DNA of 64,000 nucleotides from an uncultured virus (IMG/VR IMGVR_UViG_3300042519_003322) (Duplodnaviria; Heunggongvirae; Uroviricota; Caudoviricetes). Below are positions 26,718 to 48,556 of the stretch, in pieces. The stretch is from IMG/VR virus record IMGVR_UViG_3300042519_003322. One strand, given 5' to 3'. Both the position numbers and the translations under genes were made by a program. Numbering within the stretch: the stretch's first letter is position 1; each line of letters opens with the position of its first letter. A model generated the notes under the pieces. It did not search any database. It had not been told where the DNA came from and saw only the letters and a program-made list of their open reading frames with translations.

Positions 26718-27222
26718 CTTGCTGCTCCTCTAGTTGGCGAAGTGTTTTTGTAGCCCGCCATGCGAAATCTCGTTCTTCCGCGGTTTTGAAAATAAAGTTA
26801 TTTGCATTTAACTTTACCATTTGATTGCAGCATGACTTCGTAAGCATTCTCTGTTCAATGGTTTCTGAGATAAATGATTTGACTGCACGTTTTGTTTTGT
26901 CAATCTTTTTCTTATTTTTGCCGACAACAGCATGCGAAGGCATTGACTCAAGTAATGAATCGTTGACTGGTCTTGTTTTGGTTATAAAAGTTTCATACCA
27001 TGCGCCAGATGTTGGTCTTTTGGGAGCGTCCCACATAAATCTCTGAAATGGGGTAGTGCGAAGTTTTGTAAAATTCCGAGCAGTGCTCGAGAGGTGAATG
27101 ATGTCAGCTTTCAATGCAGAGCCGTCAGAACGTTCGACTATTGCGTCTTTTTGTCCAGGCTTTGCATCTAGGTCATAATAGACACGACTATCGTTCAAGA
27201 GACCAACCAGTACTGACTTCAC
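26707..27222 (-). CDS. hypothetical head-region protein
   Basis: 171-aa ORF translationally coupled to its neighbours. Confidence 0.6.
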   Translation of the reverse strand: MKSVLVGLLNDSRVYYDLDAKPGQKDAIVERSDGSALKADIIHLSSTARNFTKLRTTPFQRFMWDAPKRPTSGAWYETFITKTRPVNDSLLESMPSHAVVGKNKKKIDKTKRAVKSFISETIEQRMLTKSCCNQMVKLNANNFIFKTAEERDFAWRATKTLRQLEEQQDVG

Positions 27223-30200: not shown

Positions 30201-33200
30201 AATAATGTCTGTTTGTACTTCGTTTGCTGAGAGTGGCAGTTGAAGCTCTTCTGATAATGACCTATTCGCGACGACTATTCCAGCCCATCTATGATGTCCA
30301 TCGAGAATATATGAATCTTTTGTTGTGAGAATTGGTTGCATGAACCATTCTTTTCGCATTTCTTCTAAATATTTATCTCTAAAATCTTTGTCAGATATCT
30401 TAGGGTTATCTTTTCTTATTTTTTCTGCTACTTCAATTGCTTTTTCTTGAACCGTTTGAGCGGTTCCATCTGCCTTGCTAGCTACTATTTGTTGCTGAGA
30501 AGGGGCATACTCACTTGGGTCCACATCACGACGTCTAACTGCAGGACCATTTTCTGGGTCATCAACCTTGATTAGTCCGTTAAGCCAATCAATAAATGGT
30601 GTTTCAAGGTTTACCTCGGTATCATTCCAGTCAGTATTTTCATAAAGCCACTCTTTCGCTCTATCTGAAAGTGTAGAAAAAGAATCTGCCCTGTGCTCCG
30701 CTGCCGTCTTCCCGCCCATTTCGTTCTTTAATGAGTGCTTGTCGGCGATGATTCCGTACAGGATTCCAGATATTTCCTCATCAGATACGGGAGGCTTTCC
30801 TTTTTCTGCGCGTTTAGCGTTTTGTTTTTTTATTGCTTTGTCTAGTTCGTCTGCAAACTCTATTTCAAGTCCCCTATCTCTAGACACGAGCGGGTCGCCG
30901 TTCTCGTCCTTTGATGGTTCCCATTTACCTGCTGCAATCCCATTTTTTAGTGCTCGAATTGCTTTGGTCTTGTGGCCAGATGACCGCCCATTTGTTTGAG
31001 GCATTTTTTCTCTGTCAATACCGATATGCCCTGAACACATAAGGTTATTCGCCGGGTTGTATAGGGAACATAGGTCCGCCTGATAATTGCCGATGTATTC
31101 ACCCTCCATGGATTCGCGCGTCTTGGGGTCATTTAGGTCCGCATCAGGATTTCTCTTTGCATAGTCTTCCTGGAATGAGCGCCATTTTGGATGATTGTCT
31201 TTTATGTGATTTTTTGCAACTGTTTTAACTTCTTTTTCAAAGGCTTTCTGTGCTTGTTCGGTTAGGCGTATGTCTTGTTCTTTAACTTCGACGTGGTGTC
31301 CAAGCATCATCATTGCTACGGCTGTATGAACGTCGTCGACTTCGTATAGATTCGAGTCCTTCTCGCTAATCGAACGCCTGCCAGAACGCCTTACCGCTCC
31401 ACCGAACTTTTTAGATATCTCATCATCGGACATGTCGTTAATATTTGTGCCGCTATCGACAACATCATTGAAAACTTCCAAAGCCTTTTTTGCGACTTCC
31501 CCCTCTTGACGCCTACGTTCGGCCAGGCTTCCGCTTGTATCTATCGTTCTGCCTGAAGAAAGTCTTTCGGAACGTTCTTCTGGTCCCATTTGTGCAAGTC
31601 TCTGCGCTCTTCTTGTTGGGCGAGAACCATCCGCTGATGGCACGGAAAACGGGGAGCGCACACCAGCGCCTGATGCAAGTTTATCTATGTCCGAATCTGT
31701 TGCCCTAACGCGAACTCTTCTATCAAAACCCTCATGCATTCTGTAGGCGGTTTCAGCTGCCTTGGCTATGATTTCTTCTTCCGGAGTGTCGGCTATAAAT
31801 TTCGCCACCTCTGGATGAATATCCCCACGAGATATGGCTCCATCTTTCCCGCCACCGCCTAGTACGTCTTTTATGTTTCTGATAATTGAGGAGTTTGCCG
31901 CCGTACGTGACTCTGTTCTTTGCTGACGCGTAGATGGCTTCCCTAGTACTCCATCGGGCGTGGTGGCTCCAGAAGAGAGGGCCCCTGAGCCGCTGTCTGG
32001 ATTGTCGTAATCGGCAAATGAGCCGCCAGCATCAGTAACCTTATCTAAAGTCGCCTTACTTCGGGTGCTGGCAGACTCGTCAGAATCACTTCGTGGTCCA
32101 GGGCCTGCTTTCCCAGATGAGCGTCGCTTGGTCACGTACTTGTCCGCCATGGCTTGAATTTTTTTGCCATGACTTCTAGCCCAGATTGCGTCTGTCGTGT
32201 TCTTGGAGAGATTTTCCGCCAATGAGTCGACGACTTCTACAGTATCTTTTTGATATGAAATTTCTGCACGGATAGTTCCGTCAGCATCTCTGCCAATTAT
32301 TCTTATTCTCCCCGGCGGAGCAACAAATTTCTGCTCCGAATCCCCTCCCGTAGTTGGGAATAGTCCGCGGTCTTTTTCACGCACGGAAAGAATAACTCGC
32401 CGCTTGGTTTTTCCGGACTTGGGGTCACGCTTTCCGCGTTCCGGCATATCTGTTTTTTTAGTCCTACTTGTTATGACTCTTCCGGAAATGAACTGGTCCA
32501 GGCTGACTTCTTTGCCATCTATTTTCCCCTTCAAAACACCAGATTCAAAGTCAATTATTGCTTCCATCTCAAATGGTTCGCCTACCGACGTCCCATCGAT
32601 TGCCTCCATCGTCGGTATGAGTAGATTTTCTACCTGCTGAACGACATCTCCTTCTTCAGAAGATGTTTTATCTACCTTTAAGCCGAGCTTTTTGAGGCGT
32701 GCGTTGCGCTTATTTATTGCTCGGCCGGCTCTTGTTTGCGAAACCGGGTCAAGAAGCATCCCTACATCTGATTCCGCTACATCTCCAAGCTCCTTCATAG
32801 CCTTTTTTTGTTCGGGCGTTGCTTTTACTCGGGCGCGCTCTTTTGCGCCGTGCTTTCGAGCTTCATCAGCGCTCTTGAATTTCTTCTTAGGCTTCGATGG
32901 TGGATTTATGATGTCATTGACTTTTTTATCAAGTTCTTTTTTGATTTGTGCTTTAGTCCGCGTATCTCCTGCGGACTTCATATTTTCTACGTACTGTTCT
33001 CTAATGACCTCAATCTCGTCGGCCAATTTCTTAAATTCATCAGACGAAGAGTCGAGTTTCGAGAGTCTTACCTTGTCGTCAACCAAGAGGCTGATAGTTT
33101 TCTTTTCGGGCATTGATTTAACTCTGTCGCGCAAATCATCGAGGTCGGCCCTGCGAGCAATATCGGCCATTTCTTTTGAATCAAGCAGACCTTCTCGCTT

Positions 33201-35768
33201 ACGTATCGAGTAGACCTCATCATCAAATCTTTTTCTTTCACCACTAGCGCCTATACCGTACTTCTTGCGCCAAATTTTTGACGCCTCGTCGTATCGTTTT
33301 GCGTGAAAATCAAATTCTCTCTTGGCTTCCCGCACTGCATCAGCCTTGAGTATGTCTCGAACGATTTTTCCTGATGTGGTAAGCGGGAAAAAGGGGTCTT
33401 CTATCTCTTCTACCTCTAATAATTCCAGCCGTCTGGCACTGGCGTCACGCTGAGAGCCAATGATTGCTGCCTCTTCAAACATTTCTTCTTCTGAAAATTT
33501 GGAGAACTCTGTTTTGAATCGCTTAAGTTCTTCACGGATTGCGGCGGTAGCTCGCGCGTCGATGTCTTCATCTGATACTGAACCTGGGTCAACGGGGTCC
33601 GCGGGAATATCAAATACGTCATCTAATTTTCTCTGACCATCTGTGTCATCACTTGCCGTTCGGTCTCTTGCCGCCACAGAGAAGGACATGTTGTCCATCC
33701 ACTCAAGAGCAGCGTCAACATCGTCGCCAAAGATAATTCCGCGTTCGCGTAGTGCCCAAATCTCGGCAGATGCTTCCAGCGCCCATACTTCCGAACCTAC
33801 AGCGTATCCATCACGCGGGTATGCCCCAGCCAATGGAGCAATTGCCTGGATTCTGGTCATTGCGTCATTTAGCGATTCAATATTGATTGAGTCAGCAATG
33901 CCAGTCATTATTGACATAAGGTCGGAGCCTGTCAGGCTATTGATGTTCTTAACTTCACGCTCGCCAACAACAGCTCCTTTTTTATTTCTGACCGCAACGG
34001 AAATGAAACCTTTTTCTGTAATTTCTTTCTGTATTTTGTCCAGGAATACTTGAGATTGTTTGTGGTGAGCTATTTCATGGAGCATGATATGACTTGAAAA
34101 TCCATACACGCCATCAAGGAGGCCGGCCATGCCTCTGGCCGTATGGTCTGCATTTACCATGAAATCAGCAACCGCAAGTCGTCCTTCTGCTTCGCTTCTA
34201 GCACCAATAGCAGATATTGCTAAACGCTCGTCTCCGCCCATGTTCGGAAGCATGGTTTCTTGATTGGCACTAATCATCCCCATATTGATGTGTATTGCCG
34301 TTTTCATCCCATTTTGCGTTCTATAGAAGGACGTACCAGCTTCATCATCTGTCATGAAGTTGAATTCAATTCGACCAACCCCACGCATGCTGCCTGGGTC
34401 TGTCATGAATTGGTCAAGTAAGGTTTCAAGCATTGCTCGTTGAGTGGTCTTGTATCGCTCAAAATCAGACTTCAATAGTCTTTCTTGTTCTTTACTAGAG
34501 AGCCTGTTCCAGCCAGGAGTAGATGAGAGTCTTGTTTTTACAAATTCTTTTATTTCTACATCTGTTAATAGCTCGTCCCCTTTTCCGGAAACATCAAGAA
34601 CTTGCACATCCCAGCCAGCAGTGCCGCCTGTTTGCGAATGCATTTCTTTTAGTTTTTTAAGCGCCTTAACCGGAGCATCTGGGTCGTCGGCGTCAATCCC
34701 CAATGCGTCGTACATGCGCACAACTTCGGCTTTTTGACGAGCAATATCATCCTGACCACGAATGGCTCCGTTTTTAAATAAACGTAAATTCTCTGGGACG
34801 GCGATGTCTCGCCATTCCGGTATTTTGATTCCCCAGTAGGCGCACTTTTCCGCAAGAGCAGGGTCTCTTTTCGACCTGGGGCCATGTATCCATCTGAAGA
34901 AGTCTGCGGCGTTTTGGCGCAATCCCGTATATTCACCTTGGGCAGTGAGCTTGGCTGCCTGTCGCGCTGCAAAGCGAGAGAATTTCGATGCACTGAATCC
35001 AAAACAGTTTGCTCCAGTGGCGTCTGTAAATTGATTTGCTGCAGGCGTTCCTGGAGGACATCTAAATTTATTGTTTTCGTCACGAAGGATGCCAAACACG
35101 GCTGCAGCTCGCGAAAGGAGCGAGCCTCCTGGAACTCTGGATTCAAGACTGCGACCCGGTAATCTTTTTTCTTCTAGGGTGTTTTTTTCATTTTTACGTA
35201 AGGCTTGCTGTTTTTCTTCATAGCTAAGCCCTGCCGCTATTCCGAATGGGTCAATGATTTTTTCGGAATCAGGTATGACCTCATCTGTCCTTGGATTTAC
35301 CTTGTATTTGCTTAACTTTATTTTTGGCTTTTCCCTATAGGCCCGAAGCATTTCTTCAAATGTTGTCGTTGACTTATCTTCCGGCGGCAACCAGCCAAAG
35401 TTGGGCTCTGTGCCCATTCCCTCGCGAGATTGAAAAGGAGGGCTCAAGACAAGCCTCGAACCGGGTTCCCACTTTCCTCCCGTTTCCCATCTATATCCAA
35501 ATTCATTGGATTCGACACCAGGTCGACTGTCTCCGGTGAATTCTCGTTTTTTCCCGTCGGTATCGACATCGGCTTTTACGCGTATGCCAAAACCTTCTGT
35601 AATAGTTTTTGTGACAAGCTCGGCCTGAAGTTTTCCAGTTGACAGAGACGAGTTAATCGACTGCCTGAAAAGAACTGCCTTTTCATTGAAGTCGCCGCAG
35701 CACGAAGACGGCACCATGAGTTGTGCTGAAACTATTACTCTTTCCCGCATTGCTGGGGTATTCGCCAC
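27219..35768 (-). CDS. giant multidomain protein (zincin, degenerate ART-like, tandem ParB/Srx-like modules, DUF3626-like)
   Basis: 2849 aa. HEIAH; two PSQ...PIL...Y.LDGHHRW ParB motifs; C-terminal PVSGYL...GDIEIVLRP...EAQILGGF...DVEQI. Confidence 0.85.
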   Translation of the reverse strand: MANTPAMRERVIVSAQLMVPSSCCGDFNEKAVLFRQSINSSLSTGKLQAELVTKTITEGFGIRVKADVDTDGKKREFTGDSRPGVESNEFGYRWETGGKWEPGSRLVLSPPFQSREGMGTEPNFGWLPPEDKSTTTFEEMLRAYREKPKIKLSKYKVNPRTDEVIPDSEKIIDPFGIAAGLSYEEKQQALRKNEKNTLEEKRLPGRSLESRVPGGSLLSRAAAVFGILRDENNKFRCPPGTPAANQFTDATGANCFGFSASKFSRFAARQAAKLTAQGEYTGLRQNAADFFRWIHGPRSKRDPALAEKCAYWGIKIPEWRDIAVPENLRLFKNGAIRGQDDIARQKAEVVRMYDALGIDADDPDAPVKALKKLKEMHSQTGGTAGWDVQVLDVSGKGDELLTDVEIKEFVKTRLSSTPGWNRLSSKEQERLLKSDFERYKTTQRAMLETLLDQFMTDPGSMRGVGRIEFNFMTDDEAGTSFYRTQNGMKTAIHINMGMISANQETMLPNMGGDERLAISAIGARSEAEGRLAVADFMVNADHTARGMAGLLDGVYGFSSHIMLHEIAHHKQSQVFLDKIQKEITEKGFISVAVRNKKGAVVGEREVKNINSLTGSDLMSIMTGIADSINIESLNDAMTRIQAIAPLAGAYPRDGYAVGSEVWALEASAEIWALRERGIIFGDDVDAALEWMDNMSFSVAARDRTASDDTDGQRKLDDVFDIPADPVDPGSVSDEDIDARATAAIREELKRFKTEFSKFSEEEMFEEAAIIGSQRDASARRLELLEVEEIEDPFFPLTTSGKIVRDILKADAVREAKREFDFHAKRYDEASKIWRKKYGIGASGERKRFDDEVYSIRKREGLLDSKEMADIARRADLDDLRDRVKSMPEKKTISLLVDDKVRLSKLDSSSDEFKKLADEIEVIREQYVENMKSAGDTRTKAQIKKELDKKVNDIINPPSKPKKKFKSADEARKHGAKERARVKATPEQKKAMKELGDVAESDVGMLLDPVSQTRAGRAINKRNARLKKLGLKVDKTSSEEGDVVQQVENLLIPTMEAIDGTSVGEPFEMEAIIDFESGVLKGKIDGKEVSLDQFISGRVITSRTKKTDMPERGKRDPKSGKTKRRVILSVREKDRGLFPTTGGDSEQKFVAPPGRIRIIGRDADGTIRAEISYQKDTVEVVDSLAENLSKNTTDAIWARSHGKKIQAMADKYVTKRRSSGKAGPGPRSDSDESASTRSKATLDKVTDAGGSFADYDNPDSGSGALSSGATTPDGVLGKPSTRQQRTESRTAANSSIIRNIKDVLGGGGKDGAISRGDIHPEVAKFIADTPEEEIIAKAAETAYRMHEGFDRRVRVRATDSDIDKLASGAGVRSPFSVPSADGSRPTRRAQRLAQMGPEERSERLSSGRTIDTSGSLAERRRQEGEVAKKALEVFNDVVDSGTNINDMSDDEISKKFGGAVRRSGRRSISEKDSNLYEVDDVHTAVAMMMLGHHVEVKEQDIRLTEQAQKAFEKEVKTVAKNHIKDNHPKWRSFQEDYAKRNPDADLNDPKTRESMEGEYIGNYQADLCSLYNPANNLMCSGHIGIDREKMPQTNGRSSGHKTKAIRALKNGIAAGKWEPSKDENGDPLVSRDRGLEIEFADELDKAIKKQNAKRAEKGKPPVSDEEISGILYGIIADKHSLKNEMGGKTAAEHRADSFSTLSDRAKEWLYENTDWNDTEVNLETPFIDWLNGLIKVDDPENGPAVRRRDVDPSEYAPSQQQIVASKADGTAQTVQEKAIEVAEKIRKDNPKISDKDFRDKYLEEMRKEWFMQPILTTKDSYILDGHHRWAGIVVANRSLSEELQLPLSANEVQTDIIEGLTLGKVFQDAFGIKEARLGAENRWEVGEIEDMSADEFSDIAKDLTDNAPSLIDAKYEQGDYIQLGSVGLTNNPDYAARSKERQATAARDETRKIASDVVAKVRKRGKPLHEYTPEELKEDFGDSIKPSDLKPLFTSADPKDMAVYKVDNVGQAIALMALGHHVSLEYSSDEAIAKKQKESLSFAKTLQEEFFKDIKKMGQDVIANNEKEWLDFKTKEEAAITSSGGDPAAFEEVIKKNFLKKFADQYKTNLCNFYDGDENVFCGNNLGIPRAKMPQAGGRLVGANTRGAELGLAGEIPLKKVTHKHMDPYGIKKWEGEDRFQEIMARVKKGPESASAISDEDRQFVMDNLDWDVTEIDGTGMIKEIIRGKLGDDAIKENIAVDPSQYTPSQQELDAVQTDGMHESLKAAVEHYTKTLTEDGKYKRGTKEFTDALVQALKDDDDTAAKASGRQFGAQGMMDPILATSDKYLLDGHHRWSAITVYNGEVDDDQKVPLHVDEVQTDIVSGLTLTKVLQRGLGLKDAKLTGAVDFEEGDVKKVEIGERARVLKEINDSMDLLAADIYAEGDFIEIDSVGMRNNPQYAEEILTRQQDALSRPAKRTANASQSAGSPDADTADTLSSGRTSVGDRARLRSSTGGVGVSSSRESEVEPGSTVGLSSENYAREYYSRIGIPDSVDGDLLPVSGYLVHKSHMDKKKQDVTKGRSGNLRPDAVFEIGDEDVVGDGLTALGDIEIVLRPGVSERTAYGRGNSISSAHRPVRLNSRNREDVADALLNSDGVSADSNRQDAFINMISASLNNDFSNVNATRGKNGKMPNSFESKLPEGSSREPFEAQILGGFDISDVEQINIPFKRLEAASAKEDISDVVNTKTIADRLRSAGFSPEEIDYFYSIGGGQLNTESMAMLRNYRASQKMKNDLAGRGFNNVKFAHPTGFNIEDPRSHSKSPIGGDSAEATLIRAISDEIIKAAKELLNDMKKTNKPTLTTTAGGLM

Positions 35769-37524: not shown

Positions 37525-37654
37525 ACAGCTCCCGTTAGTGCAGGGAAATGACCGGATAGACCATTAACCAATAATGTATTTAAATTATAACCTATCACGC
37601 TATACGTGAGTGAATTAGGAACACCCAATACTTCTCTTTGATTTTTTAGCATCT

Positions 37655-40600
37655 CTAACTTACTTTTCTCTTTTTGCCAGACAAGGTTTCACCAGACTCA
37701 ATTCTTTCTGCGGCAGTTCTCAGTTGTTCGGCGCTAAATATGTCATCGATGGTGTGATTGGTTCCGAACACTTCATTAAATCTGTCAACTATTGATTGCA
37801 ATTCTGAGTCAGAGAATCTTGCTTCGTTTCCTTTTTTCGGAGACCATGCCGAGCCTTTTGCCGTCGCAGCATCTCTTAACGCAACACCCATGTCAGTTCT
37901 TCCAGTTATCTTGTTTCGACTGGCTTGGCTATTGAGCTTGCTATCAGGAAAACTCTTGTCAATAAATTCGTTTAATGCTTCATACACGGCGTATTTTGAT
38001 TTCTTCAGTTCGTTGTCAAATCTTTCGCCCGTGGACGCGTCTTTCCAGACTGAAGCGGCGTTAGGTATTAACCCAGTTCTAATCATGTGAGCGACCGTGG
38101 CCGTTGGTATTCCGTCTTTCTTCCATTCGTCCCATGCTCCGACGGCATCCATTCCGAAAGCAGCAGACATTCGTTCTTTAAGGGTCGTCTTCCATTCTTG
38201 TCTATCGATTCCTAGATATTTCAGAAGCTGCTCTAATTCAAAATCTTCTCTGCTTGTTTTGTCTCCACTAATTATCTCACCATCTGGTTCCGCACTAGGC
38301 AGAACGCCATCAATAAGCTCTCCGTAGAGGTCGTATTCTGCCTCTGAGTCGCCCTTGGTCGGGTCCTCTGGGTCAAAGCGACCAGTTGCGCGGAATTTAG
38401 ACACTGCGCTAATTTCGCCAAGCTTGCTGTATTCGTCTGGCGTTATGGACTCGCCCTCTTCCGGGTCGAACCAATGAGGGAACGCGTCCTTGCCGAAGGT
38501 CTCGATTATGAACCTGTCACGCATGTTTGCGCGACCAACATTTTCCAAAGCAAGGTCTATCTTTGAGAATCCTTCAACATCACCACTGGGTGATGGCGGG
38601 ATAATCTTTGCTACTTCTTCGGCGCTAACTGGGGAAAAGTATCGCCATGCGCTCAGCTCTGGTTGCTTGCCGAGTTCGGCAATAAGCAGTCTGACAGCAT
38701 CATGGTTGATGCCGGCGTCCGGCGCTTCCAGGGCTGCCGTATCTGGACCATTCAAGCCAAGAAGTGTTGCAAGCTCTTTGCGTGTAACCGGGCGGGTCTG
38801 AGTCCACTGTAGCGAACTCTTCCCGTCCCTATTGGCGGAAACAAATTCGGTCGGAACTCTTAGAGTTTCAGCAAGTTTGTCCACGGACAGCATCCATGTC
38901 AGCGCCGAGGGAGCGTCATTCACGTTATTGTCGCCCACTCTGCCGACACGAACGAGGTTTTGGCGCTTCTTCATCTCTGCACCAACTGACTTTATTGTTG
39001 CAGCGTTTTTAGATTTGCGTGCTTCGGTTTCTGATGCATCGTCGTCCACATCTATTGCTATTCCGACGTCACGGAAACGCTTCCACACGTTCATTGAGAA
39101 ATTCAACTTGGCTTGCTCTTTTGGCGACTTTAAGTCACCCCTAAAGCGAATGCCAGCAATTTCTTGTGCGCTTCCGCTGCCATCGTAAATTCTACTGCCG
39201 CCTGACGACCCTCTTCTATTGAGTCTGCCGTCGCGACGAGTTGGTGTATTTTTGGGGCCACTACCCGCTCCACTTGACAGGCCTGTCGATGGGTCTGGTT
39301 TTGCGCCGCCCCTTGCAGGGAGGTTGTCGAAATTGATATCTTCGACGCGCATGGCGTTTAGTTTTTGATAGAAGTCCGGCAGCGGTATTCCGCCCTCATC
39401 GCCAAATGCTCCTCTGTCGAGCCCTTCTGGGATGTGTCCATCTTTTACGGCTTGAGCCATCGCTTCGCGAACTGGCTTCGTTTTCTGGTCGTGCAAATAA
39501 AAGGCAAAGGTCTTTGCTCCTGGGTCTATCATTTTTTTAGCACGTGAAAGGCCTACATGTATGAGATTCGTTGCCTGCATCCATCCTATGGAAGCCTCAC
39601 CCTTCGGTGTACTTTGAGGCAATAAGTCATCAGGGTCGTCAATGTCGTCCGCCATAACGAGATAGTCGAATTCCCGCCCCTTGCTCAGTGCCATCGTGGT
39701 TATTTGAACATCTCCGCCAACTTCCTTTGCTTCGTCACGAAGAGCCTGACCGAGAAGTTCCAATATGTCCGAACTTTCTTGTAGAGTTTCTCCTTCAATC
39801 ACCCAACCGTCATACAGGCGACGCTTAGAACCTCCCTTCATGGCCCCCTCTGCCTCTTCTTTGGGCTTAACCTTGTCTTGAAGTCCATATCTTTGAATTA
39901 TTTTCTCGAGATTCCTTCTGAATCTACCGTTACCAACCCTTTGATTGGGTGCCTTGTTTCTTGACTCAGAACCATCATCGTTGATTTTTGGCCGATTACT
40001 ATCAACGCCATCTCCAGTAATGATTATTTTGCCGGTTGGCTTTCCTGGTTTCGTACTGCTACCACCATTAATTTCGAGCTGTGCATAAACAGCCGACCTT
40101 CCATCGGTGGCTCCAGTTGGTTGAGGAATTATAATTATTTTTTTACGCTGACTATCACTCGCCTGTTCTGCTTCTGCCGCTTTGGTGCCGCGAGATATTC
40201 CCATAACTACTGCCCTGACACCTTTTGATGGGTCTGAGTCATCGCCAGTAAAATTGTTTAGTTGTTGAGTTTTTCTTTCTGGCAATAGCACCGCAGGAAC
40301 GGTGCGAATTTTTTGTTTGCCGTTTACTTCTTCAACAATATTTTCACCCCGAAGAAGGGTGAGCATTCCGCGAGTTCCAAGAGGCGCTTGTCCTGGTGGG
40401 GCTGTCGTTATGAGTCTGTATGCGGTGGTTAGCTGTTGGGACCTGGATTGTTTAAGTAATTGTTGAAGTCTTCCCTGTGTCCAGACTGGCCCAAGCCACT
40501 GGGATTCAGGGGGACGTCCCCCAAATATTTTTTCGTATGCCGCTTGCTGTTCTGGACTTTTCATGATGTAGTCAAGTTGAATAGTAAATGCCAACAAATC

Positions 40601-43600
40601 TTCATGTTTTTTGGCTGGAATAACTACTTCTGGTATTTTTGGGAATCCATTTTCGTCTTTTTCGGCGTTCGGCCTATTGATGACTAGGTCAATGAACTTG
40701 AGGGCCCAGTCTATAATTTCCGCATTAGTCCCTGTTAAAATGGCGTCTGGGAAGATGCCTTGATTGGCGAGTTCAACAAAGTCGACTATTTTTCCTTCTC
40801 TTTCATCGTAGAGCTCGTCGCGTAGTTGTTTTAGAATTGCATCCTGAGCAACTCTGGTCTTGTCAGATATCTCAATTTTTTTATCTGGTGTTGAAAATCT
40901 TTTTTCAATATCGTCGATAATCAGGGCGCGTGTTTTGTCGTTGATTTCTGGAACTTGATTTGCGCCTTTTCTGTCTTTTTTTGCAAGCACTGGGTCAAAC
41001 AACATGTTTATGACCTCTTGTGCCTGACCCTTCACATGCTTCCAGTCCATTGACTGCGGAACTTCCTGTCCTCTCAGGTAGAGGTTCTGTCGACCAAGTG
41101 CCATGTTGGTTAAGTGAGCGACGACTGGTCCATACCTAAATGATTCGGTTATTGATAGCGAATATTCAGCATCAAGGGAATCAAGTATGTTCTTCGCATC
41201 GCGGAAAGCATAAACAGCCTGTCTATCATCACCCACTAAAATTATTGGAAGATTTTTTCTATTGTTTTCTAATACGGTTTCCAAAATTTCATTAGAGTCT
41301 TGAGACTCGTCTACCATGAACGCGCTGAGTGGATTCTCGACAGTGGCAACCCGCTTGGCAAGTCTTGCTTTTACTTTGCTACTTGAACCATCTCGCGAGG
41401 TTCCCGCCACAATCCATTCTTCACCGTTCTCGTCAACATACTTGTCTCCAACTTTGTATGTATTCGGTATCGGCACTTTGTTTCTTGTTTGATTTTCAGA
41501 ATGCGTTATGAGGCCAGGGTCGGTTCTTAAGTCCGGATTCGAAAGTAGCCATAGTTTTTGAACAGAGTCCCTTCGCGGAATCATGTTGCTGTTGCCGTCC
41601 ATCATTGCATCTATCGCTTGCTGGAGGGCCTCAACCCACAATTTGGGTACTTGGTCCTCTGTGAGGACCGTGTCCACGACATGAATGTCTTTTCCCTGGC
41701 CTTTAGGGGTGGTGCGGCCCTCTGCACGATATGCCGACGGCGTAAACATCCATGCTGCTGCTTTTTCTTCTTTTGATATTTCCCATCTTCCGAGAGCGTT
41801 ACTGAGAATATCGGCCATTTCTTCAGTGGTTACTTGTGTTGTTCCTCTTCCATCAGGGAGAATAAATATTGACTCGTCGTATTGTTCACGAACTTCTTTG
41901 CCGTTGGCGTCACGGACTGTTCTGCCCTTGGAGTCCTTCTGTACTCGGTCTCTTCTTCTGGTTTGCTGGTCGGGCCATTTGTCTATCCCAAGGAATTTAA
42001 TCCAGTCCACGGCATCATCAAGTCTCTGCCAACCAAGGGTCCTGTAACCAGGCTCCTCTCCTACAAATGTTTCAATCGTGCCATCAAAATGTTCGCGAAC
42101 AAAATCGGAACCAATTCTCCTTGGTTCATCTGGAGTTTTTTCTTTACTTATAAATTTTGGATTATCTTTACCGCTTCCGGCGGCTGAGTTATCTGCTTTA
42201 AGTTTCTGGACTGCCATTTTTCTACGGAACGCAGGACCAAATCTTTTGTCGCCACCACCTAGCATTAGAGACCAAAGAAAAAGCTTGTCGGTCGTGGCTA
42301 TACCCGTATTTTTAGGGAATTCTTTCTCGGCTTCATGCTGGTTTTTTGTGTTAAAAACCGTGTAATACATATTGCCCATGGGGTTGTCTTTTGCAAGTTT
42401 TGCTACTGCTAACGCAATTTCTTCTGAAGACATCTTGCTAAAATCAATCTTATATCTATCTGCTAAATACTTGAGTTGTTCTTTGCGACGCTCGTCGCCT
42501 TCTGGCCATAGGTTGAATTCACGAGCCAACGCCCATGCAATACTCTTCAGGGTTGTAGTTTTTCCTGTTCCTGCACCAGCAAGAATAGACATGATTTGTG
42601 GGTTTTTCTCACGAACAAGACGCATAACAACATCCATAATGTCTCGCTGCTCGTTTGTTGGCTCATTACTTAAGCCGAACGCAAACTTCATGGAAATATC
42701 TTCATCGGTGCGCTCTACGTCGGGAGCGCCCTTCCTGCTCTTGATTGGGCCAGCCTTTTTGCCGCTTGCCAAAGCTCCAGATGGCGTAATTACTACGCCG
42801 TCTTTGTTCCTGCGTATAGCATTTGGATGAATCTGGAAGGAGCGCATTTCGCGCTCTTCGATACTTAGATTTCGAGCATCCGGAACAAGTTCGTCGTACT
42901 GCTCCATGTCAAGCAGGTCTTCCATTGGTCCCGTGATTGTTGTTGGTGACTTTATTTTTTCTCCACCCGGATATCCAGCAATCATTGGTATTTCAAACCA
43001 GCCCGAGTCCTTGCCCTTGCGTTCGCCGTCAGGGATACCTGCGAGCTTGCGCATTGTGGCAGAGCGGTCCATTATGTAGTCATTTGCTTTCTGCGCCTGC
43101 AGAATGGCCCGGTGAATTGCTAGCGGGTCTTTTTGTAGTTTCTTTATCCAGCTACTTAGGTAAAGCAAATGGTTTTCTTGTATCGTTGGTTCAAGGCCCA
43201 TTGCGCCCATTGCAAACGCGGAGCCTATTTCTGCAATAAGTTCTTCAAAGGCGTAATCTTCGTCTCCAAACGTTTTCCCCAATTTTCTGTCGAGTCGACT
43301 CGGATGCGATGTCCAGTGGATTGTCTCATGCATTGCAGTTCCATAAAAAGCCAAAGCATCCTTGAACTGTTCAAATGCAGGCATATGAATTTTGTCGGTG
43401 GCGGGGCGATAAAAAGCCTGCGAGCCTAGAGATTCGACAAAAGAAGGACCTATTTCCTTAATGACATTTTCTATATCCTGCAACCGTTGCTCTTGGTTTA
43501 TTTCTACATCACCAAGCTCGTAGAAACTTTCTGGGAGTCCTGCAATTTCATCGACGTTGTATACCGTTTGAACAGAATAGTAGCGACCCATTTCAACTTG

Positions 43601-46318
43601 CTTGCCAGTTGAATCAGTAAAGCTTCGTCCTTCACGAGGAACGAGAACCTGCACTCCCCTGTTTCTGCCTCCCGGTTTTACTTTGCCGCCTAACTTTTTC
43701 CACTGTCCCTCTCCGGCCCATCGATTCATTTTGTAGCCGCGAGCTGAGCCCGTAAGGGACAAAATCATCTGATTCATGCCTTGGTAGATGCGGTCACTAG
43801 TTGGATTCCGCGCATAATTCTCGGCATTACGCCATGGCAATTCCCATCTTTTTGATGCGTCTGGATTGTTGGCGAGTTCCTGCAAAATAGCGACAATATC
43901 TTTTGCCATTTCCTTGTATAACTCTTCAAGCTGGCTGGAGCCTTCGGGAAGCTCTGCCTTGTCTGCCAACTTTCCTGATGAAAGCGAGGACAGGGGGCCG
44001 TCATATTTGCGGCGCTCGTCTTGCGTCCGCTTCGCCTCGGGCTTATTTAGATACTTGCCGTAGCCGCTTGAAAGACCCTGACTGGTCTTTTCTACCTGCT
44101 TCTTTACGGGCTTTTTCTTTGGCTTTTCAGTATCAGCCATTTCGCCTTCGGCCATCTTCTCGACACGTTCCATGTATTTGTCGATTTCCGCAATGGCCTT
44201 CTTTAACTTCTTTATTTGGTCAGAATCTGATGCTCCATCCAAAACGCCTTGAAGCTCGTCACGCTGCGACTCTGCTGCGCCATATTTTTCTGCCGAATCA
44301 ACATCCGGGTCGTCTATTCGCGGAAGATTTACAAGCTCGCTTCCAGAGGAAAGTTTCTGGCGCTCTTTAGGTTTTGTTATTTTCTCTACTTGAATTTCCG
44401 CTCGAGAAATTGCTGCAGCATTCGGCTTCGCAACCTGCCTGGGGGATGGCTTGGGGTTACGAATAGAGCCAGGACCATCTGGTGTTGGGTCATTTACGGC
44501 AAGCGGAACTCCACGCAGGAACAGTCCCTCTCCTACGATGCCGTTAAGGTTGGAGTCGCGTGCAGTGAATGGGTCAAAGTCTTCCGCACCCACAGATGTG
44601 AAGAAACGACCGCGAGAACGACCTCCGCCGATGTTTGGGCGGTCAATTAATCGACTGCTGATAGCTCTGCCGAGGCGATACCCGGCTGCTTTCCACTCTA
44701 GGTTGTTTTCACTTAAGGATTTTTTTTTTAAATTTGCGACAGCGTTGTCGACTGCCTCAATCAATTCGTAAGTAACGCCAGAAGTCATGAAGATACCGCT
44801 TGTGTCGACGTAAGAATCAACACCATGGTAATCAAAGATTGGGTCAAGAACTTGTTTTACTTGGAACGCGAACTGAGGTACAACTGGAAGTAAGTATGGC
44901 TTGTCTTCAAAATCTTCACTCTTGGAACCAAATTCACTCAAGAACTTAAAGCTCCGACGCTTCTTTCTCCGCTTGCCGACCACTCCACGAAGTCCTGCAA
45001 CTGCTAATTCCCCGGGGTATTTCACCTCGAGGTCAGCGACGTAATCTTCTTCGGCGAATTCCTCGTCGAGTTCATATGCTTTTGAGCCGGCTCCCTTGAC
45101 AACGCCCTTTGGGATGACGGCAAAACGACACTTACCTTCAGGTTCTACTTCCATGTCGATTATCTTGCAGGCGCTTCCACCCTGATAAAAGACGCAGTTG
45201 GAGCACTTGACGCCGATTCCGGCAACTTCATTTTGTGCAGCAGGGGTATACGCTGCCCATACTCCCTCGGAATCTTCGTTAAACTTTCCGTGACGCTTTA
45301 CGATTTTTAAAAGAGCATCTCTTAAGTCAGCTTCTTCTTGGTCAAGATTACTTGGGTCAAATCGACTTCCATTATCGTTTTCGTATTGCACTGGTGGCAA
45401 AGGAACTATCTGGTTGCCGTTTTCGCCTGGCTTAATAGCAACTGGGATTGATGGCATTTGAGAAGGCCGAACAATTCTTTGTGGCTCATTTGGGGGCATA
45501 CCTGGCATCGCCATTGGCATTGCGCTTACAGGAGCAATGGGCTTACGCACGGGCATTACAACAATGGGGCGCGGCGCACCGAACATATAATGTCCGCGAT
45601 TATTGCTGAATCCACACTTGTAGCGGCCAACTTCTCCGTTGTCCATTCTTCGCGCAAACGTAATCTCTTCGTCGTTAACTTCCATTAAAGATACTTTTGC
45701 GCCCAAAATTGCAGCAAGCTGCTTTTCTATCTCTGCCTTGTCAATTGGGTTTTCTTCGTTCATCATGGACATCAAGATTCCACCGGACAACTCTTCGGAC
45801 TTAACGGAAATAGTCCCAGTTAGCTGGTTTGCGCCATGCAGAACCGGAGATACCTCATATAACTCAAGTTCATAAATGATATTTGCTTGGGATTTCTGGT
45901 CAAACTGAGCTCGAAGTGTCTTGTAACCAATCGACCACTCCTGCTCTTCGCCAAAGAAGGCGACCATGGCGAATGCTTCGCGACCTTTTTCTGAATTGAG
46001 ATTGAACTGAACTCGAGCGAACAGGCCACCAATTCCGGCCATCTTCATTTTCATAGGAAGGCGATTATCCGTGTTCGGAACTTCGTAAATCTCTAGAACC
46101 TTGCCAATGGGGTCATTCCAACTGTGTCCCCAGACAACGCGCGGCTTACGGCGTTGGAGGCTCTTCGTGAATGCTCCAGTGGCAACGATGTCGCCCACAG
46201 AGTCCTTGTTGCCGATGCCAGCCACGAAGCATTCGACAATTCCCTGCGCTTCATCCAAATTGATGGAGTCGGAGTGCCCGAGCGTAGACGACTTATATTC
46301 AAACAATTCTGATGGCAT
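37655..46318 (-). CDS. HK97-type prohead protease fused to Cys-rich, ArdC (ssDNA-binding + zincin) and UvrD-like SF1 helicase modules
   Basis: Protease: DSVGD...GAF...WGH...PIG...WSIGY...LYEVSPVLHGAN. ArdC: PW...NP.S.R.YQGMN...QWKKLGGKV...HETIHWT...YAFEELIAE. Helicase: AGAGTGKT, VDESQD, VGDDRQAVYAFR, ESFR, SKGREFD, VGLSRA. Confidence 0.88.
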   Translation of the reverse strand: MPSELFEYKSSTLGHSDSINLDEAQGIVECFVAGIGNKDSVGDIVATGAFTKSLQRRKPRVVWGHSWNDPIGKVLEIYEVPNTDNRLPMKMKMAGIGGLFARVQFNLNSEKGREAFAMVAFFGEEQEWSIGYKTLRAQFDQKSQANIIYELELYEVSPVLHGANQLTGTISVKSEELSGGILMSMMNEENPIDKAEIEKQLAAILGAKVSLMEVNDEEITFARRMDNGEVGRYKCGFSNNRGHYMFGAPRPIVVMPVRKPIAPVSAMPMAMPGMPPNEPQRIVRPSQMPSIPVAIKPGENGNQIVPLPPVQYENDNGSRFDPSNLDQEEADLRDALLKIVKRHGKFNEDSEGVWAAYTPAAQNEVAGIGVKCSNCVFYQGGSACKIIDMEVEPEGKCRFAVIPKGVVKGAGSKAYELDEEFAEEDYVADLEVKYPGELAVAGLRGVVGKRRKKRRSFKFLSEFGSKSEDFEDKPYLLPVVPQFAFQVKQVLDPIFDYHGVDSYVDTSGIFMTSGVTYELIEAVDNAVANLKKKSLSENNLEWKAAGYRLGRAISSRLIDRPNIGGGRSRGRFFTSVGAEDFDPFTARDSNLNGIVGEGLFLRGVPLAVNDPTPDGPGSIRNPKPSPRQVAKPNAAAISRAEIQVEKITKPKERQKLSSGSELVNLPRIDDPDVDSAEKYGAAESQRDELQGVLDGASDSDQIKKLKKAIAEIDKYMERVEKMAEGEMADTEKPKKKPVKKQVEKTSQGLSSGYGKYLNKPEAKRTQDERRKYDGPLSSLSSGKLADKAELPEGSSQLEELYKEMAKDIVAILQELANNPDASKRWELPWRNAENYARNPTSDRIYQGMNQMILSLTGSARGYKMNRWAGEGQWKKLGGKVKPGGRNRGVQVLVPREGRSFTDSTGKQVEMGRYYSVQTVYNVDEIAGLPESFYELGDVEINQEQRLQDIENVIKEIGPSFVESLGSQAFYRPATDKIHMPAFEQFKDALAFYGTAMHETIHWTSHPSRLDRKLGKTFGDEDYAFEELIAEIGSAFAMGAMGLEPTIQENHLLYLSSWIKKLQKDPLAIHRAILQAQKANDYIMDRSATMRKLAGIPDGERKGKDSGWFEIPMIAGYPGGEKIKSPTTITGPMEDLLDMEQYDELVPDARNLSIEEREMRSFQIHPNAIRRNKDGVVITPSGALASGKKAGPIKSRKGAPDVERTDEDISMKFAFGLSNEPTNEQRDIMDVVMRLVREKNPQIMSILAGAGTGKTTTLKSIAWALAREFNLWPEGDERRKEQLKYLADRYKIDFSKMSSEEIALAVAKLAKDNPMGNMYYTVFNTKNQHEAEKEFPKNTGIATTDKLFLWSLMLGGGDKRFGPAFRRKMAVQKLKADNSAAGSGKDNPKFISKEKTPDEPRRIGSDFVREHFDGTIETFVGEEPGYRTLGWQRLDDAVDWIKFLGIDKWPDQQTRRRDRVQKDSKGRTVRDANGKEVREQYDESIFILPDGRGTTQVTTEEMADILSNALGRWEISKEEKAAAWMFTPSAYRAEGRTTPKGQGKDIHVVDTVLTEDQVPKLWVEALQQAIDAMMDGNSNMIPRRDSVQKLWLLSNPDLRTDPGLITHSENQTRNKVPIPNTYKVGDKYVDENGEEWIVAGTSRDGSSSKVKARLAKRVATVENPLSAFMVDESQDSNEILETVLENNRKNLPIILVGDDRQAVYAFRDAKNILDSLDAEYSLSITESFRYGPVVAHLTNMALGRQNLYLRGQEVPQSMDWKHVKGQAQEVINMLFDPVLAKKDRKGANQVPEINDKTRALIIDDIEKRFSTPDKKIEISDKTRVAQDAILKQLRDELYDEREGKIVDFVELANQGIFPDAILTGTNAEIIDWALKFIDLVINRPNAEKDENGFPKIPEVVIPAKKHEDLLAFTIQLDYIMKSPEQQAAYEKIFGGRPPESQWLGPVWTQGRLQQLLKQSRSQQLTTAYRLITTAPPGQAPLGTRGMLTLLRGENIVEEVNGKQKIRTVPAVLLPERKTQQLNNFTGDDSDPSKGVRAVVMGISRGTKAAEAEQASDSQRKKIIIIPQPTGATDGRSAVYAQLEINGGSSTKPGKPTGKIIITGDGVDSNRPKINDDGSESRNKAPNQRVGNGRFRRNLEKIIQRYGLQDKVKPKEEAEGAMKGGSKRRLYDGWVIEGETLQESSDILELLGQALRDEAKEVGGDVQITTMALSKGREFDYLVMADDIDDPDDLLPQSTPKGEASIGWMQATNLIHVGLSRAKKMIDPGAKTFAFYLHDQKTKPVREAMAQAVKDGHIPEGLDRGAFGDEGGIPLPDFYQKLNAMRVEDINFDNLPARGGAKPDPSTGLSSGAGSGPKNTPTRRDGRLNRRGSSGGSRIYDGSGSAQEIAGIRFRGDLKSPKEQAKLNFSMNVWKRFRDVGIAIDVDDDASETEARKSKNAATIKSVGAEMKKRQNLVRVGRVGDNNVNDAPSALTWMLSVDKLAETLRVPTEFVSANRDGKSSLQWTQTRPVTRKELATLLGLNGPDTAALEAPDAGINHDAVRLLIAELGKQPELSAWRYFSPVSAEEVAKIIPPSPSGDVEGFSKIDLALENVGRANMRDRFIIETFGKDAFPHWFDPEEGESITPDEYSKLGEISAVSKFRATGRFDPEDPTKGDSEAEYDLYGELIDGVLPSAEPDGEIISGDKTSREDFELEQLLKYLGIDRQEWKTTLKERMSAAFGMDAVGAWDEWKKDGIPTATVAHMIRTGLIPNAASVWKDASTGERFDNELKKSKYAVYEALNEFIDKSFPDSKLNSQASRNKITGRTDMGVALRDAATAKGSAWSPKKGNEARFSDSELQSIVDRFNEVFGTNHTIDDIFSAEQLRTAAERIESGETLSGKKRKVS

Positions 46319-46444: not shown

Positions 46445-48556
46445 TTAAACTGTCTGGCCGAAACTCCATGCCGACCTTGTCTCGCGCTCTGCCAGTAATT
46501 CTTGTTGGTGCGCAAAAAAATCCGTGAACATTTCTACGAGACCATCGCGAAAGAAACTAAACCGTTTTTCTTCATCCGCATACACGAAAGATTTGAGCAT
46601 TAAAGAGTTAATTTCATTGAAATGAGACTCGTTAATTTTCTTAATTCTCAATGTATGTGCATCAACCATTGCTCGAACATCTTTTGCTGGCAAGGCTTTG
46701 ATTTTGAGACCGTTTGTGGATGCGTCATTAACTCTCGATTCAAAAGAATCATTAATAATTGATGACACAACAGGACGAATATCCTCATCGAACTGCTTGT
46801 TCCACGTATCTATTGACAATACGGATTCAATATCAAGCGTGCCGTGCATTAGGGCTTTCCTTGATTTTGTCCCGCTTGCCTTTTCAAGAACTACTCGTTG
46901 CTGGCGCTCAATAACTCTCTCCATGCCACGAGCTAGAATGTTCGTCCATCGCTCTATCGCCTGTTCATTGCGGTCAATTGCGTCTTTGGTCTCTTGTTTT
47001 TCTTCCGTGGACTTTACCTGTATCTCGTTATCCGGCGACGATGCCACGGACATAGGTCCTGGGGGCATTGGAGCCTGTACGCCGCCTCCAAAGGCCTCTG
47101 GTGGGGTTGTTGTTTGCGCAAGCTGGCCACTGGCTGCGGACTCCGCAAGTGCCCCAGCCATCGTATTGACGTCCAGCGGTACAGGTTCGCCGCCCGGCGG
47201 AACTGGTCCTGGGGGCATTCCTGGCACACCTGGAGGCATTCCCGGCATTCCCGGCGGCATTCCTGGCATTCCCGGAGGCATTCCTGGCATACCTGGGACT
47301 TCAGTCTGGCCTTCTTCCATTTTCTTCTTGGTGTTAGCAATCGGAATGAGATTGGGGTTCTGGAGCAAGGAGTCTGCGAGGTCTGCCTCAACTTCTTTAC
47401 GAGAAGAACCGATTCTATACTCGTTTGCACTAATTAAGCCAGTCTGGAACTCCTGCAACAGGTACCTGTCTCTTTCCTGCTTGTAGAGCATAAGAATTGG
47501 GACTTCTGACGTGTCAAAATCTAGATAATACTTGTCATCGAGTTCATCAAGAGCTCTGGCGATTGGCTCAAGATGGGGGAGCATTGTTTCCATCCAAAAA
47601 ACACGGATTTCTTCTCCGGCATTACTGAATGTTCTTCCAGAAGCGTTTCCTATGACGGATTCAGGAACACCAAATGCTGACAGAATTTCTTCTTTTGTTA
47701 TTTGACGCATCTGAACATATGCCGCATCGCGCGGATTGGCCGAAGTATCGACGAAATCAACACCGTCATCGGCAGCAATAACTGTTGTATGACCAGCCCT
47801 TGCCAGATTGCCGCGGAACCTATTTCTAAGCTCCTCCTTATCGTCTTCTTCCATCTCTCCACGAACAACCAAAATGCCGCCAGGACGACCATCATTAAGC
47901 AGGTAGTTGCGGTTGTAGATTTTGGCTAGGTTTTCTATCTCAATGGCAACCCCAGCCGCTTCCAGTGGCGTAAGGGACAGATAAGGGTCGAGAGGGTGCG
48001 GTCTCCTTATCCAGCAAACATCTTCTGGCTTTAAGAACTGCTTTTCTCCGTAGGGCATTTGTACTTCGTACCCTGATACGAACTTTTTGGGGTCCGGTAT
48101 TGGTGCCGTTGATTGAGGTGGAAGAAGGTTGAGGGCAATAATTCCCCCATCCCGTCCTCTAATTTTCTCTACGAATGCCCCTCGAGTACCGAGCATCAGC
48201 TGAGCCGACAATCTGTATCGGAAAATAAAAGAGTTTTCTCCTACATTCGCCTTATTATTCAAGAGCTCTAAGAGGGTAGACCTGTTGGCCTCGCGGCCGC
48301 GAACTATTTCCCCCTGATTAGAGTTGTCTTTCCTAAGAATAATTGGAAGGCGAGCCTGATTTCCAGCAATCGCATCAATACATCTATTGACCCAAGTAAT
48401 CTTGGACATTCCCTCGCGATAGGCGCGTTCAATGTCCCATCCATCCTTATACGCTTTCCCTGCTAGGGACGGGTTTATGGATACCGGAGCTCCATAGCCC
48501 AGGTCCTTGCGGGACGGGGGGATTATATTTTTATTTTGAGACGGGTTCCAACGCAT
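46445..48556 (-). CDS. portal protein (HK97-like) with Pro/Gly/Met-rich linker and C-terminal extension
   Basis: WVNRCIDAIA..A.LP, GAFVE, LTPLEAA, NDGRPGGIL, I..AFGVP...IG...RTFSNA. Lies directly upstream of the prohead protease. Confidence 0.9.
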   Translation of the reverse strand: MRWNPSQNKNIIPPSRKDLGYGAPVSINPSLAGKAYKDGWDIERAYREGMSKITWVNRCIDAIAGNQARLPIILRKDNSNQGEIVRGREANRSTLLELLNNKANVGENSFIFRYRLSAQLMLGTRGAFVEKIRGRDGGIIALNLLPPQSTAPIPDPKKFVSGYEVQMPYGEKQFLKPEDVCWIRRPHPLDPYLSLTPLEAAGVAIEIENLAKIYNRNYLLNDGRPGGILVVRGEMEEDDKEELRNRFRGNLARAGHTTVIAADDGVDFVDTSANPRDAAYVQMRQITKEEILSAFGVPESVIGNASGRTFSNAGEEIRVFWMETMLPHLEPIARALDELDDKYYLDFDTSEVPILMLYKQERDRYLLQEFQTGLISANEYRIGSSRKEVEADLADSLLQNPNLIPIANTKKKMEEGQTEVPGMPGMPPGMPGMPPGMPGMPPGVPGMPPGPVPPGGEPVPLDVNTMAGALAESAASGQLAQTTTPPEAFGGGVQAPMPPGPMSVASSPDNEIQVKSTEEKQETKDAIDRNEQAIERWTNILARGMERVIERQQRVVLEKASGTKSRKALMHGTLDIESVLSIDTWNKQFDEDIRPVVSSIINDSFESRVNDASTNGLKIKALPAKDVRAMVDAHTLRIKKINESHFNEINSLMLKSFVYADEEKRFSFFRDGLVEMFTDFFAHQQELLAERETRSAWSFGQTV

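Follow-up and report, generated by a model that had tools for sequence, protein, structure and literature searches.

The 64,000-nucleotide stretch considered here (the window) is part of a 119,748-base linear IMG/VR record of an uncultured virus, IMGVR_UViG_3300042519_003322, whose completeness is estimated at 71%. Its minus strand carries one open reading frame (ORF) of 2887 amino acids (aa), P0001, in which the phage head-maturation protease is continuous with a leader segment, an ArdC anti-restriction module, a UvrD-like helicase and a C-terminal module. The gene can be understood as a head-protease gene joined to the gene of a leader-bearing cargo polyprotein, the products of which would be dosed by slippage at a run of ten A residues, loaded into the head, cut apart and injected with the DNA; this reading, which draws on sequence comparison, is given an even chance of being correct. 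The parts of the protein on which it depends are as follows.

37655..46318 (-): whole fusion ORF P0001, 2887 aa, one ATG start and no internal stop; protease protein, leader, ArdC, helicase and C-module
45809..46240 (-): prohead protease domain, aa 27-170 (Pfam Peptidase_S78, PF04586; E 1.2e-11, 45.4 bits against a cut-off of 21)
45560..45751 (-): small alpha/beta domain, aa 190-253, predicted local distance difference test score (pLDDT) 83-89; present in all short and long relatives
45098..45346 (-): Cys4 insert, aa 325-407 (C372, C375, C384, C397), with four of the six Cys of the whole protein
44720..44929 (-): C-terminal domain that closes the protease protein, aa 464-533, pLDDT 75-91; conserved, and the end point of protease-only relatives
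44720-44729 (-): A10 run, candidate slippage site; TTA AAA AAA AAA encodes L530 and K531-K533
44354..44719 (-): cargo leader, aa 534-655, about 120 aa from the A-run to the first LSSG tetrapeptide
42773..43984 (-): ArdC module, aa 779-1182 (ArdcN 799-907, E 1.7e-15; zincin MPTase-PolyVal 948-1071, E 1.7e-39; HETIH 997-1001)
39281..42772 (-): UvrD-like superfamily 1 helicase with large inserts, aa 1183-2346, identified from Pfam, PHROG and motifs
37658..39280 (-): C-terminal module, aa 2347-2887, 541 aa, with 43% mean column identity over 19 sequences

Continuity and distribution of the fusion

An earlier note on this stretch had described a single stop-free ORF at this position, after the portal gene, and had asked for its continuity to be confirmed. 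Both points hold: the frame runs unbroken through 37655..46318 (-), giving 2887 aa, and Logan contigs of runs X1, X2 and X5 span all 8664 bases with no differences and no gaps, while contigs of run X19 cover the ORF in two pieces. This comparison is one of contigs rather than raw reads, covers four of the 24 lake-water metagenome runs listed as holders of the stretch and may include the source sample. Related viral loci were also read from the start codon (n = 76, a set from which L078 and L081, where the match is cut at the contig end, were excluded); 43 have complete ORFs of 2874-3757 aa, 31 remain open to the end of the locus and two stop early, at 536 or 548 aa. Because 74 of the 76 loci keep an open frame and per-run lake contigs reproduce it, the fusion is, on the evidence of these sequences, not an artefact.

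Fusions of this type are widespread, and what is carried behind the protease varies, as a survey of relatives suggested by the earlier note has made plain. A search with the N-terminal 500 aa gave 294 matching proteins, 1587-5053 aa long, at E values of at most 0.001. A hand count of 120 listed of these 294 found PF04586 in 118, ArdcN in 93, PF00580 in 81, Sigma70_r4 in 41, DEAD in 15 and pentapeptide repeats in four. In a comparison with 130 long relatives, matches to aa 1-600 occur in nearly all, to the ArdC module in 95, to the helicase body in about 50 and to the C-module in 57-84. Since relatives vary in the middle modules, the cargo appears to be exchangeable with both ends kept, and fused proteins that carry quite different cargo are still found at about 50% identity. 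Cultured phages, by comparison, return little: no DNA near-identical to the fusion ORF was found in the phage collection, a tblastn search of the whole protein against cultured phages recovered the ArdC part only and, across 845 matching phage records, no match spans more than about one third of a 620-aa N-terminal query.

The A10 run at the protease/cargo boundary

Relatives of 534-548 aa terminate where residue ~533 lies. Those of ~460 aa have a conserved C-terminal domain whose alignment covers aa 464-533 and stops slightly before the boundary. Because these shorter relatives end at or near residue ~533, aa 1-533 correspond to a complete protease protein. The A10 run lies exactly at this point, such that one added A would bring a stop after 536 aa and one lost A a stop after 534 aa. 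Of the related loci, 75 extend as far as the junction, and every one of them has at least nine A (A10 in 63, A9 in nine, A11 in three), even though the flanks differ; in 28 of 28 fused representatives either shifted frame stops at 531-549 aa. The run is the sole A-run of at least nine in the 119.7-kb record, and only 56% of Lys codons are AAA. Two 'split' loci have an A9 run, behind which a cargo lacking its own start continues in the frame reached by one added A. As a separate observation, the only other homopolymer runs of at least nine in the record are one T9 and one T10 (genome 103853-103861 and 113771-113780), outside the window.

Runs of nine A make bacterial RNA polymerase slip and one is used by the Thermus dnaX gene (Baranov et al. 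2005, PMC1088944). The sequence features of programmed transcriptional slippage are present here, namely at least nine A in frame, shifted frames that are closed nearby and a run that is kept in diverged homologues. The phase of the A-run would permit a -1 ribosomal slip on A_AAA_AAA as well. By either route, the A10 run would be predicted to yield a protease-only product as well as the fusion.

The protease protein

The HK97-type protease that the earlier note placed in about the first 170 aa, behind the portal, corresponds to the Peptidase_S78 domain at aa 27-170, with the portal gene directly upstream. The PHROG match of the N-terminal part is to a head maturation protease, NCBIfam TIGR01543 scores 49.9 bits, under its equivalog cut-off of 59, and identity to annotated proteases of Gordonia and Brevibacterium phages is 39%. 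H65 (in WGH), S129 (in EWSIGY) and H161 are invariant in 25 aligned relatives and are presumably the catalytic residues, by analogy with HK97 gp4 and assemblin. An AlphaFold model of aa 1-537 is confident for the protease domain, for a small domain at 190-250 and for a C-terminal domain at 472-534. Model residues 23-162 superpose on T4 gp21 (5jbl_B) with a Z score of 9.7 and a root-mean-square deviation of 3.2 over 122 aligned residues, and the protease part on herpesvirus proteases with Z scores of 5.2-7.2. Foldseek places the Epstein-Barr virus protease first, at E 0.033, and returns nothing at 1e-3; a phmmer search of the N-terminal module against the PDB gave no match. As modelled, the protease part has the assemblin/gp21 fold.

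Outside the protease domain, the two small domains (190-253 and 470-535) give generic alpha/beta matches only, at Z 5-6, of which the cystatin/NTF2-like match of 190-253 at Z ~6 is not conclusive. A Cys-rich segment noted earlier was also recovered, its C372, C375, C384 and C397 lying in an insert that is absent from the ~460-aa protease-only relatives, is modelled with low confidence and matches Pfam only through HIPIP at E 0.2. A Pro-rich linker is likewise present within aa 1-533. No other S78, ClpP or MuF match was found in the record, and the corresponding S77 search lacked a working control. The closest cultured proteases are gp34 of Gordonia phage Hanem (454 aa) and gp13 of Brevibacterium phage Cantare (417 aa), which possess ~250 extra residues and whose genes lie directly before the capsid gene.

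The cargo modules

The ArdC module, the UvrD-like helicase with large inserts and the C-terminal module had all been proposed beforehand; Pfam and PHROG confirm the first two, the PHROG matches in the cargo being to an anti-restriction protein and a DNA helicase, and the third, an unassigned module in that note, matches no family or solved fold in whole-model searches. The ArdC module aligns with the solved R388 ArdC (6sna/6i89) at E 1.7e-40 over chain residues 24-293 of 305, which includes both domains, and both the HExxH motif and a downstream EELIAEIG are kept with respect to the R388 protein. In the helicase, an AAA_19 P-loop is found at aa 1239-1264 (31.8 bits) and UvrD-helicase at aa 1659-1710 (E 4e-11, 43.5 bits against a cut-off of 23), with the motifs GAGTGKT at 1248 and DESQD at 1670 and, by eye, SKGREF at 2212 and GLSRAKK at 2256. 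P0001 has no Pfam match to UvrD_C, the C-terminal RecA-like domain, and relatives carry PF13361 or PF13538.

The C-module is always C-terminal, and its AlphaFold2 model has a mean pLDDT of 77.6. It has no Pfam match at E of 0.05 or below, no sequence relative in the PDB, no usable Atlas match and no match in cultured phages. A search for shorter proteins containing it, in which the 8000 candidates sharing most words were scored, returned 16 matches that are apparently fragments from short contigs. With the whole model (>400 residues), Foldseek found nothing better than E 0.52, and VIA-align against 48,161 chains gave no Z score of 5 or above, the top match (Z 4.7) covering residues 427-527 only and being helix-turn-helix (HTH)-like.

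A leader shared with an unfused giant protein

In addition to P0001, the window contains two ORFs of comparable size.

590..10507 (-): second giant ORF, 3305 aa, leader-bearing; ten LSSG, DEDD (RNase_T/PolC-type) exonuclease at aa 2506-2697
27219..35768 (-): third giant ORF, 2849 aa, in the head operon; three LSSG, no Pfam family above threshold

The cargo leader of P0001 is homologous to the N-terminus of the separate 3305-aa giant (aa ~20-125, window 10133-10450). With a 60-position profile of the leader, the record yields exactly two copies, as does each of four complete relatives. Against 1.84 billion proteins the profile gives 47 matches; the leader begins at residues 1-24 in 34 of them, at 531-558, following a protease, in 11 and at 375 and 379 in two, both fragments. 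For the 35 matches that lie outside the protease searches (the 34 N-terminal ones and one fragment), the first LSSG is mostly found at aa 93-126. Thirteen leader-bearing giants were scanned for domains, with RNase_T detected in 11, GNAT in seven, an ADP-ribosyltransferase domain in one and an HTH in one, at positions that shift between proteins. Domains of these types are listed for injected polyvalent proteins (Iyer 2017, PMC5512222). Because the unfused 3305-aa giant bears the same leader at its N-terminus, the leader may contribute to loading as much as the covalent attachment to the protease does.

A tetrapeptide at the module junctions

The borders of the cargo modules coincide with a recurrent tetrapeptide, LSSG or LASG, which marks the transitions from leader to ArdC, from ArdC to helicase and from helicase to C-module; the module limits given in the earlier note (ArdC from 42773, helicase from 39281) fall on these same sites. 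The junctions, and the capsid-protein site compared with them below, are as follows.

44342..44353 (-): LSSG junction 1, aa 656-659, kept in 15 of 18 relatives
44063..44074 (-): LSSG junction 2, aa 749-752, kept in 14 of 18 relatives
43973..43984 (-): LSSG junction 3, aa 779-782, start of the ArdC module, kept in 16 of 18 relatives
42761..42772 (-): LASG junction, aa 1183-1186, ArdC/helicase; L[SA]SG in 18 of 18 relatives, four of them shifted by two columns
39269..39280 (-): LSSG junction, aa 2347-2350, before the C-module, kept in 16 of 18 relatives
22251..22262 (-): HLSS in the capsid protein, aa 94-97, where the helical N-terminal part ends, followed by REIKSIGQLF; expected maturation cut

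LSSG occurs four, three and ten times in the 2887-, 2849- and 3305-aa giants, where shuffled sequences average 0.07-0.10 copies with a maximum of two in 2000 shuffles, and 17 of the 20 copies in the whole record sit in these three proteins, for which about 0.6 would be expected. In 120 relatives, 955 LSSG were counted, compared with 4-38 for those permutations of the tetrapeptide that are unable to overlap it. An alignment of 19 full-length proteins shows that both flanks and linker lengths vary around the conserved LSSG. A further ORF at window 63209-64000 (+), 1619 aa in the full record and located after the tail assembly chaperone, is probably the tape measure and contains two LSSG (aa 36 and 576).

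Any processing enzyme acting at these sites is not likely to be the zincin of the ArdC module, because LSSG is kept in 18 of 18 same-clade relatives that lack any HExxH. In a more distant sister clade (loci L087-L109, relatives of P0113/P0118), LSSG is replaced by G[LFM][AS]S, and the first such junction motif is found at aa 517-542 in 12 of 14 loci. HK97-type capsid proteins are trimmed at a site such as that occupied here by HLSS, and relatives of the capsid protein have LSS[RH], LTSR, LGSS, LGAS or YGS at the same spot. Compared across clades for covariation, junction motif and capsid site give only a loose match, a hydrophobic-small-Ser core, which is not decisive. It would fit a head protease that cuts after such a core.

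A model for the fusion and its alternatives

Under the reading proposed at the outset, standard decoding would produce the 2887-aa long form, and slippage of RNA polymerase, or a -1 ribosomal slip on A_AAA_AAA, would produce a protease-only form of 534-536 aa and thereby set the ratio of the two. The long form would enter the procapsid via the protease/C-terminal part, the leader or both. There, cargo and capsid protein alike would be cut by the protease after L-S-S, which would set ArdC, helicase and C-module free inside the head. The cargo would then leave with the DNA, with ArdC shielding the entering genome from restriction and the helicase acting on this genome at once.

A broader version of the model is held more tentatively and is considered somewhat less likely to be right than wrong. 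It proposes a retrovirus-like logic in which one start serves both the protease and an A10-dependent protease-cargo fusion, and in which a common leader and a lineage-specific junction code mark ~9,000 aa of giant proteins. Once taken up into the head, these would be processed by its protease to give an injected set of proteins whose members are exchangeable. The ~9,000 aa of the three giants amount to roughly a quarter of the coding capacity of the record. If this is true, the injected set would comprise ArdC, helicase and exonuclease and, in relatives, sigma-like, GNAT and ADP-ribosyltransferase modules.

The earlier note had gone further in one respect, claiming that the fusion guarantees loading of the enzymes into the head. 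Loading survives in outline as the most economical reading, because conservation extends to the fusion as well as to all the domains named, in a gene that forms part of the head operon. A guarantee, however, is too simple a description: in two of 75 relatives the cargo follows A9 in a different frame, the A10 run would give a protease-only product too, the cargo has a leader of its own that is also present on the unfused 3305-aa giant, and the LSSG junctions suggest that the enzymes are cut apart. Since the leader occurs on unfused giants and split variants exist, the fusion is probably not the sole loading device.

A number of observations weigh against the slippage-dosed, head-loaded polyprotein. 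The two split loci are possibly homopolymer assembly errors, no notable RNA structure is found 3' of the A-run (z -0.93), none of the listed holders of the stretch is an RNA run, and the G[LFM][AS]S sister clade has no A-run at the boundary, making the run clade-specific. With the record ~71% complete, a further protease gene is possible. The scissile bond, like the LSSG-cutting enzyme, is one that we infer, and the capsid site shares L-S-S only, without the G. The 2849-aa giant has no leader match at E of 0.01 or below despite its LSSG copies, and the leader-bearing 3305-aa giant is located beside replication genes, outside the head operon.

The most serious alternative, although an unlikely one, is that the leader alone directs loading and the link to the protease is an expression device, with the A-run coupling or dosing a cargo gene that has no start, so that unfused cargo would enter the head equally well. 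The occurrence of the same leader on the unfused 3305-aa giant and 34 other proteins is as this alternative predicts, as are the two relatives with protease and cargo in different frames, and the early first motif of the distant clade (aa 517-542 in 12 of 14 loci) would mean that the protease is cut off at once. Against this, the fused frame is the genomic default in 73 of 75 loci and fusions last to ~50% identity despite very different cargo.

Two other explanations, each improbable and about equally so, dispense with one step of the model. One is that the polyprotein serves co-expression only, being cut in the cytoplasm of the producing cell to release enzymes for late replication, recombination or packaging that are neither packaged nor injected. 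A helicase and a single-stranded DNA binder could indeed serve replication, and the leader-bearing 3305-aa giant, with its DEDD exonuclease, adjoins primase/exonuclease genes; yet the fusion gene is placed between the portal and capsid genes and anti-restriction is, from general knowledge of ArdC, required at DNA entry, before phage gene expression. In addition, sister giants carry ADP-ribosyltransferase and GNAT domains, which are typical of injected effectors (Iyer 2017, PMC5512222).

The other explanation accepts packaging but regards LSSG as a linker, a modification site or a binding motif, in which case the 2887-aa protein would work uncut as a head-internal or ejection protein. Cutting at LSSG is predicted from sequence, and transfer without cutting has precedents in the virion RNA polymerase of N4 and in plasmid ArdC (Iyer 2017, PMC5512222). 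This is opposed by the restriction of LSSG to domain borders, where it stays fixed while flanks and linker lengths vary, by its replacement with another short motif at equivalent places in a related clade and by the presence of L-S-S in the capsid protein where its maturation cut is expected.

Finally, that assembly or frameshift errors created the long ORF from separate genes can be dismissed as scarcely credible: the junction is a homopolymer, a classic spot for indel errors, at which two relatives are split, but three per-run assemblies are identical, the 43 complete and 31 open long ORFs of the 76 loci come from many samples, hundreds of long relatives exist and the cargo has neither its own start codon nor leader-upstream sequence.

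If the head-loaded, protease-processed polyprotein is confirmed, it would reveal how phages that are abundant in fresh water, and that probably infect Actinobacteria, load their capsids with ready-made counter-defence enzymes that are swapped between lineages. Slip site, leader and cutting motif would then be signals by which virion-delivered proteins could be predicted from sequence alone, and leader and junction motif could be reused for loading foreign proteins into capsids.

Genomic context and host

The record has a myovirus-type gene set (terminase, portal, HK97-fold capsid protein, sheath, tube and tail chaperone), and complete relatives measure 151-170 kb, with terminal repeats in two. 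Three neighbouring genes bear on the placement of the fusion ORF or on the host.

46445..48556 (-): portal gene, directly upstream of the fusion ORF (PF04860, E 1.3e-51; PHROG match too)
21192..22541 (-): major capsid protein, 449 aa, 15 kb downstream of the fusion ORF in the same direction
13374-13697 (-): WhiB-like regulator gene, pointing to an actinobacterial host

The WhiB-like regulator, together with the Gordonia and Brevibacterium origin of the closest cultured proteases, points to an actinobacterial host. A scan of positions 34000-50500 for consensus promoters and terminators gave counts not above those of shuffles (12 vs 17 and 27 vs 21, respectively).

Directly behind the fusion gene, window 35782-37524 (-) encodes a very acidic, Lys-rich protein of 580 aa that belongs to no family and could be a scaffold or an internal protein. 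A 220-aa protein with two DUF3721 repeats (E 9e-11) is encoded immediately upstream of the capsid gene (window 22706-23368 (-)). The 3305-aa giant adjoins primase and exonuclease genes and, outside its exonuclease, matches no family; the 2849-aa giant shows a weak ParB-like nuclease hint only, at aa ~1783-1832. Segment-wise Pfam searches of these two giants added nothing but the exonuclease. Further away, a PAPS-reductase-like gene (window 55221-56360 (+), phrog_2302, E 2e-76) has ParB-like genes on either side, at 54138-55019 and 56350-56907, an arrangement that is a cysH-type auxiliary or DNA-modification cluster.

Relationship to known systems

The literature, supplements aside, yielded no description of a protease-ArdC fusion or of an LSSG site, nor of the slip site and shared leader. 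The closest relationship is to the polyvalent proteins (PMC5512222), which likewise combine many unrelated effector domains in each giant, with ArdC-N and the zincin MPTase as a hub pair, include some members with UvrD-like helicases, vary in architecture between orthologues, are linked to head genes and are predicted to be injected with the DNA. P0001 and its relatives show the same combination of several unrelated conflict-type domains, varying architecture and linkage to packaging genes. The differences are that phage polyvalent proteins are reported to be anchored on MuF or portal domains and that an assemblin-like peptidase is stated to be rare in them and confined to the C-terminus; in P0001 such a peptidase stands at the N-terminus and is the head protease of the phage itself. 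The MPTase is proposed there as the processing enzyme; here, MPTase-less relatives keep the junctions. A slippery run, a shared leader and a fixed junction tetrapeptide, all present here, are not described in the accessible part of that paper.

A second likeness is to processed internal head proteins. A short N-terminal leader is shared by several cargo proteins among the T4 internal proteins (IPI-III and Alt), as it is here, and the same applies to processed ejection proteins of giant phages of the SPN3US type (PMC7411985, PMC10052503). In T4, the leader, a capsid-targeting sequence, is removed at a consensus site of the head protease gp21 and the cargo that is injected has anti-restriction or host-modifying roles, to which P0001 may be likened. 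Here, by contrast, cargo is strung into polyproteins of 2800-3300 aa, one of them fused to the protease, and the candidate site is L-S-S-G rather than the hydrophobic-x-Glu of T4. Plasmid R388 ArdC (6sna, 6i89) differs in that it is a free protein exported by conjugation, rather than a segment between LSSG/LASG junctions of a phage polyprotein. In cultured phages too, the head protease can share a polypeptide with another head-assembly part, but none of these fusions carries ~2350 aa of enzymes behind the protease.

The logic of dosing and processing resembles that of retroviral Gag and Gag-Pol, which are textbook examples (see also PMC5737442): an assembly protein and its enzyme-bearing extension share a start, their ratio is set by a homopolymeric slip, an embedded protease cuts the polyprotein inside the particle and the enzymes act in the next cell. 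Unlike Gag-Pol, the long form here is in frame by default (73 of 75 loci), such that slippage would make the short form, and the protease is at the front rather than in the extension; the phage system is known from sequence alone. The tau/gamma arrangement of Thermus thermophilus dnaX likewise has a run of at least nine A within the gene, a full-length product from the templated length and shifted frames that stop close by and yield a shorter product with a function of its own (PMC1088944), although the gene here is a phage head gene and its short product would be a complete protease protein.

By analogy, P0001 belongs with the kin of the polyvalent proteins and would work in the manner of T4-type processed internal proteins. 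Four features set it apart: an N-terminal S78 protease that is the phage's own, a candidate slip site, a leader common to fused and unfused giants and a junction tetrapeptide that stays fixed. If the model is true, these would extend the polyvalent-protein concept with a concrete mechanism of processing and dosing.

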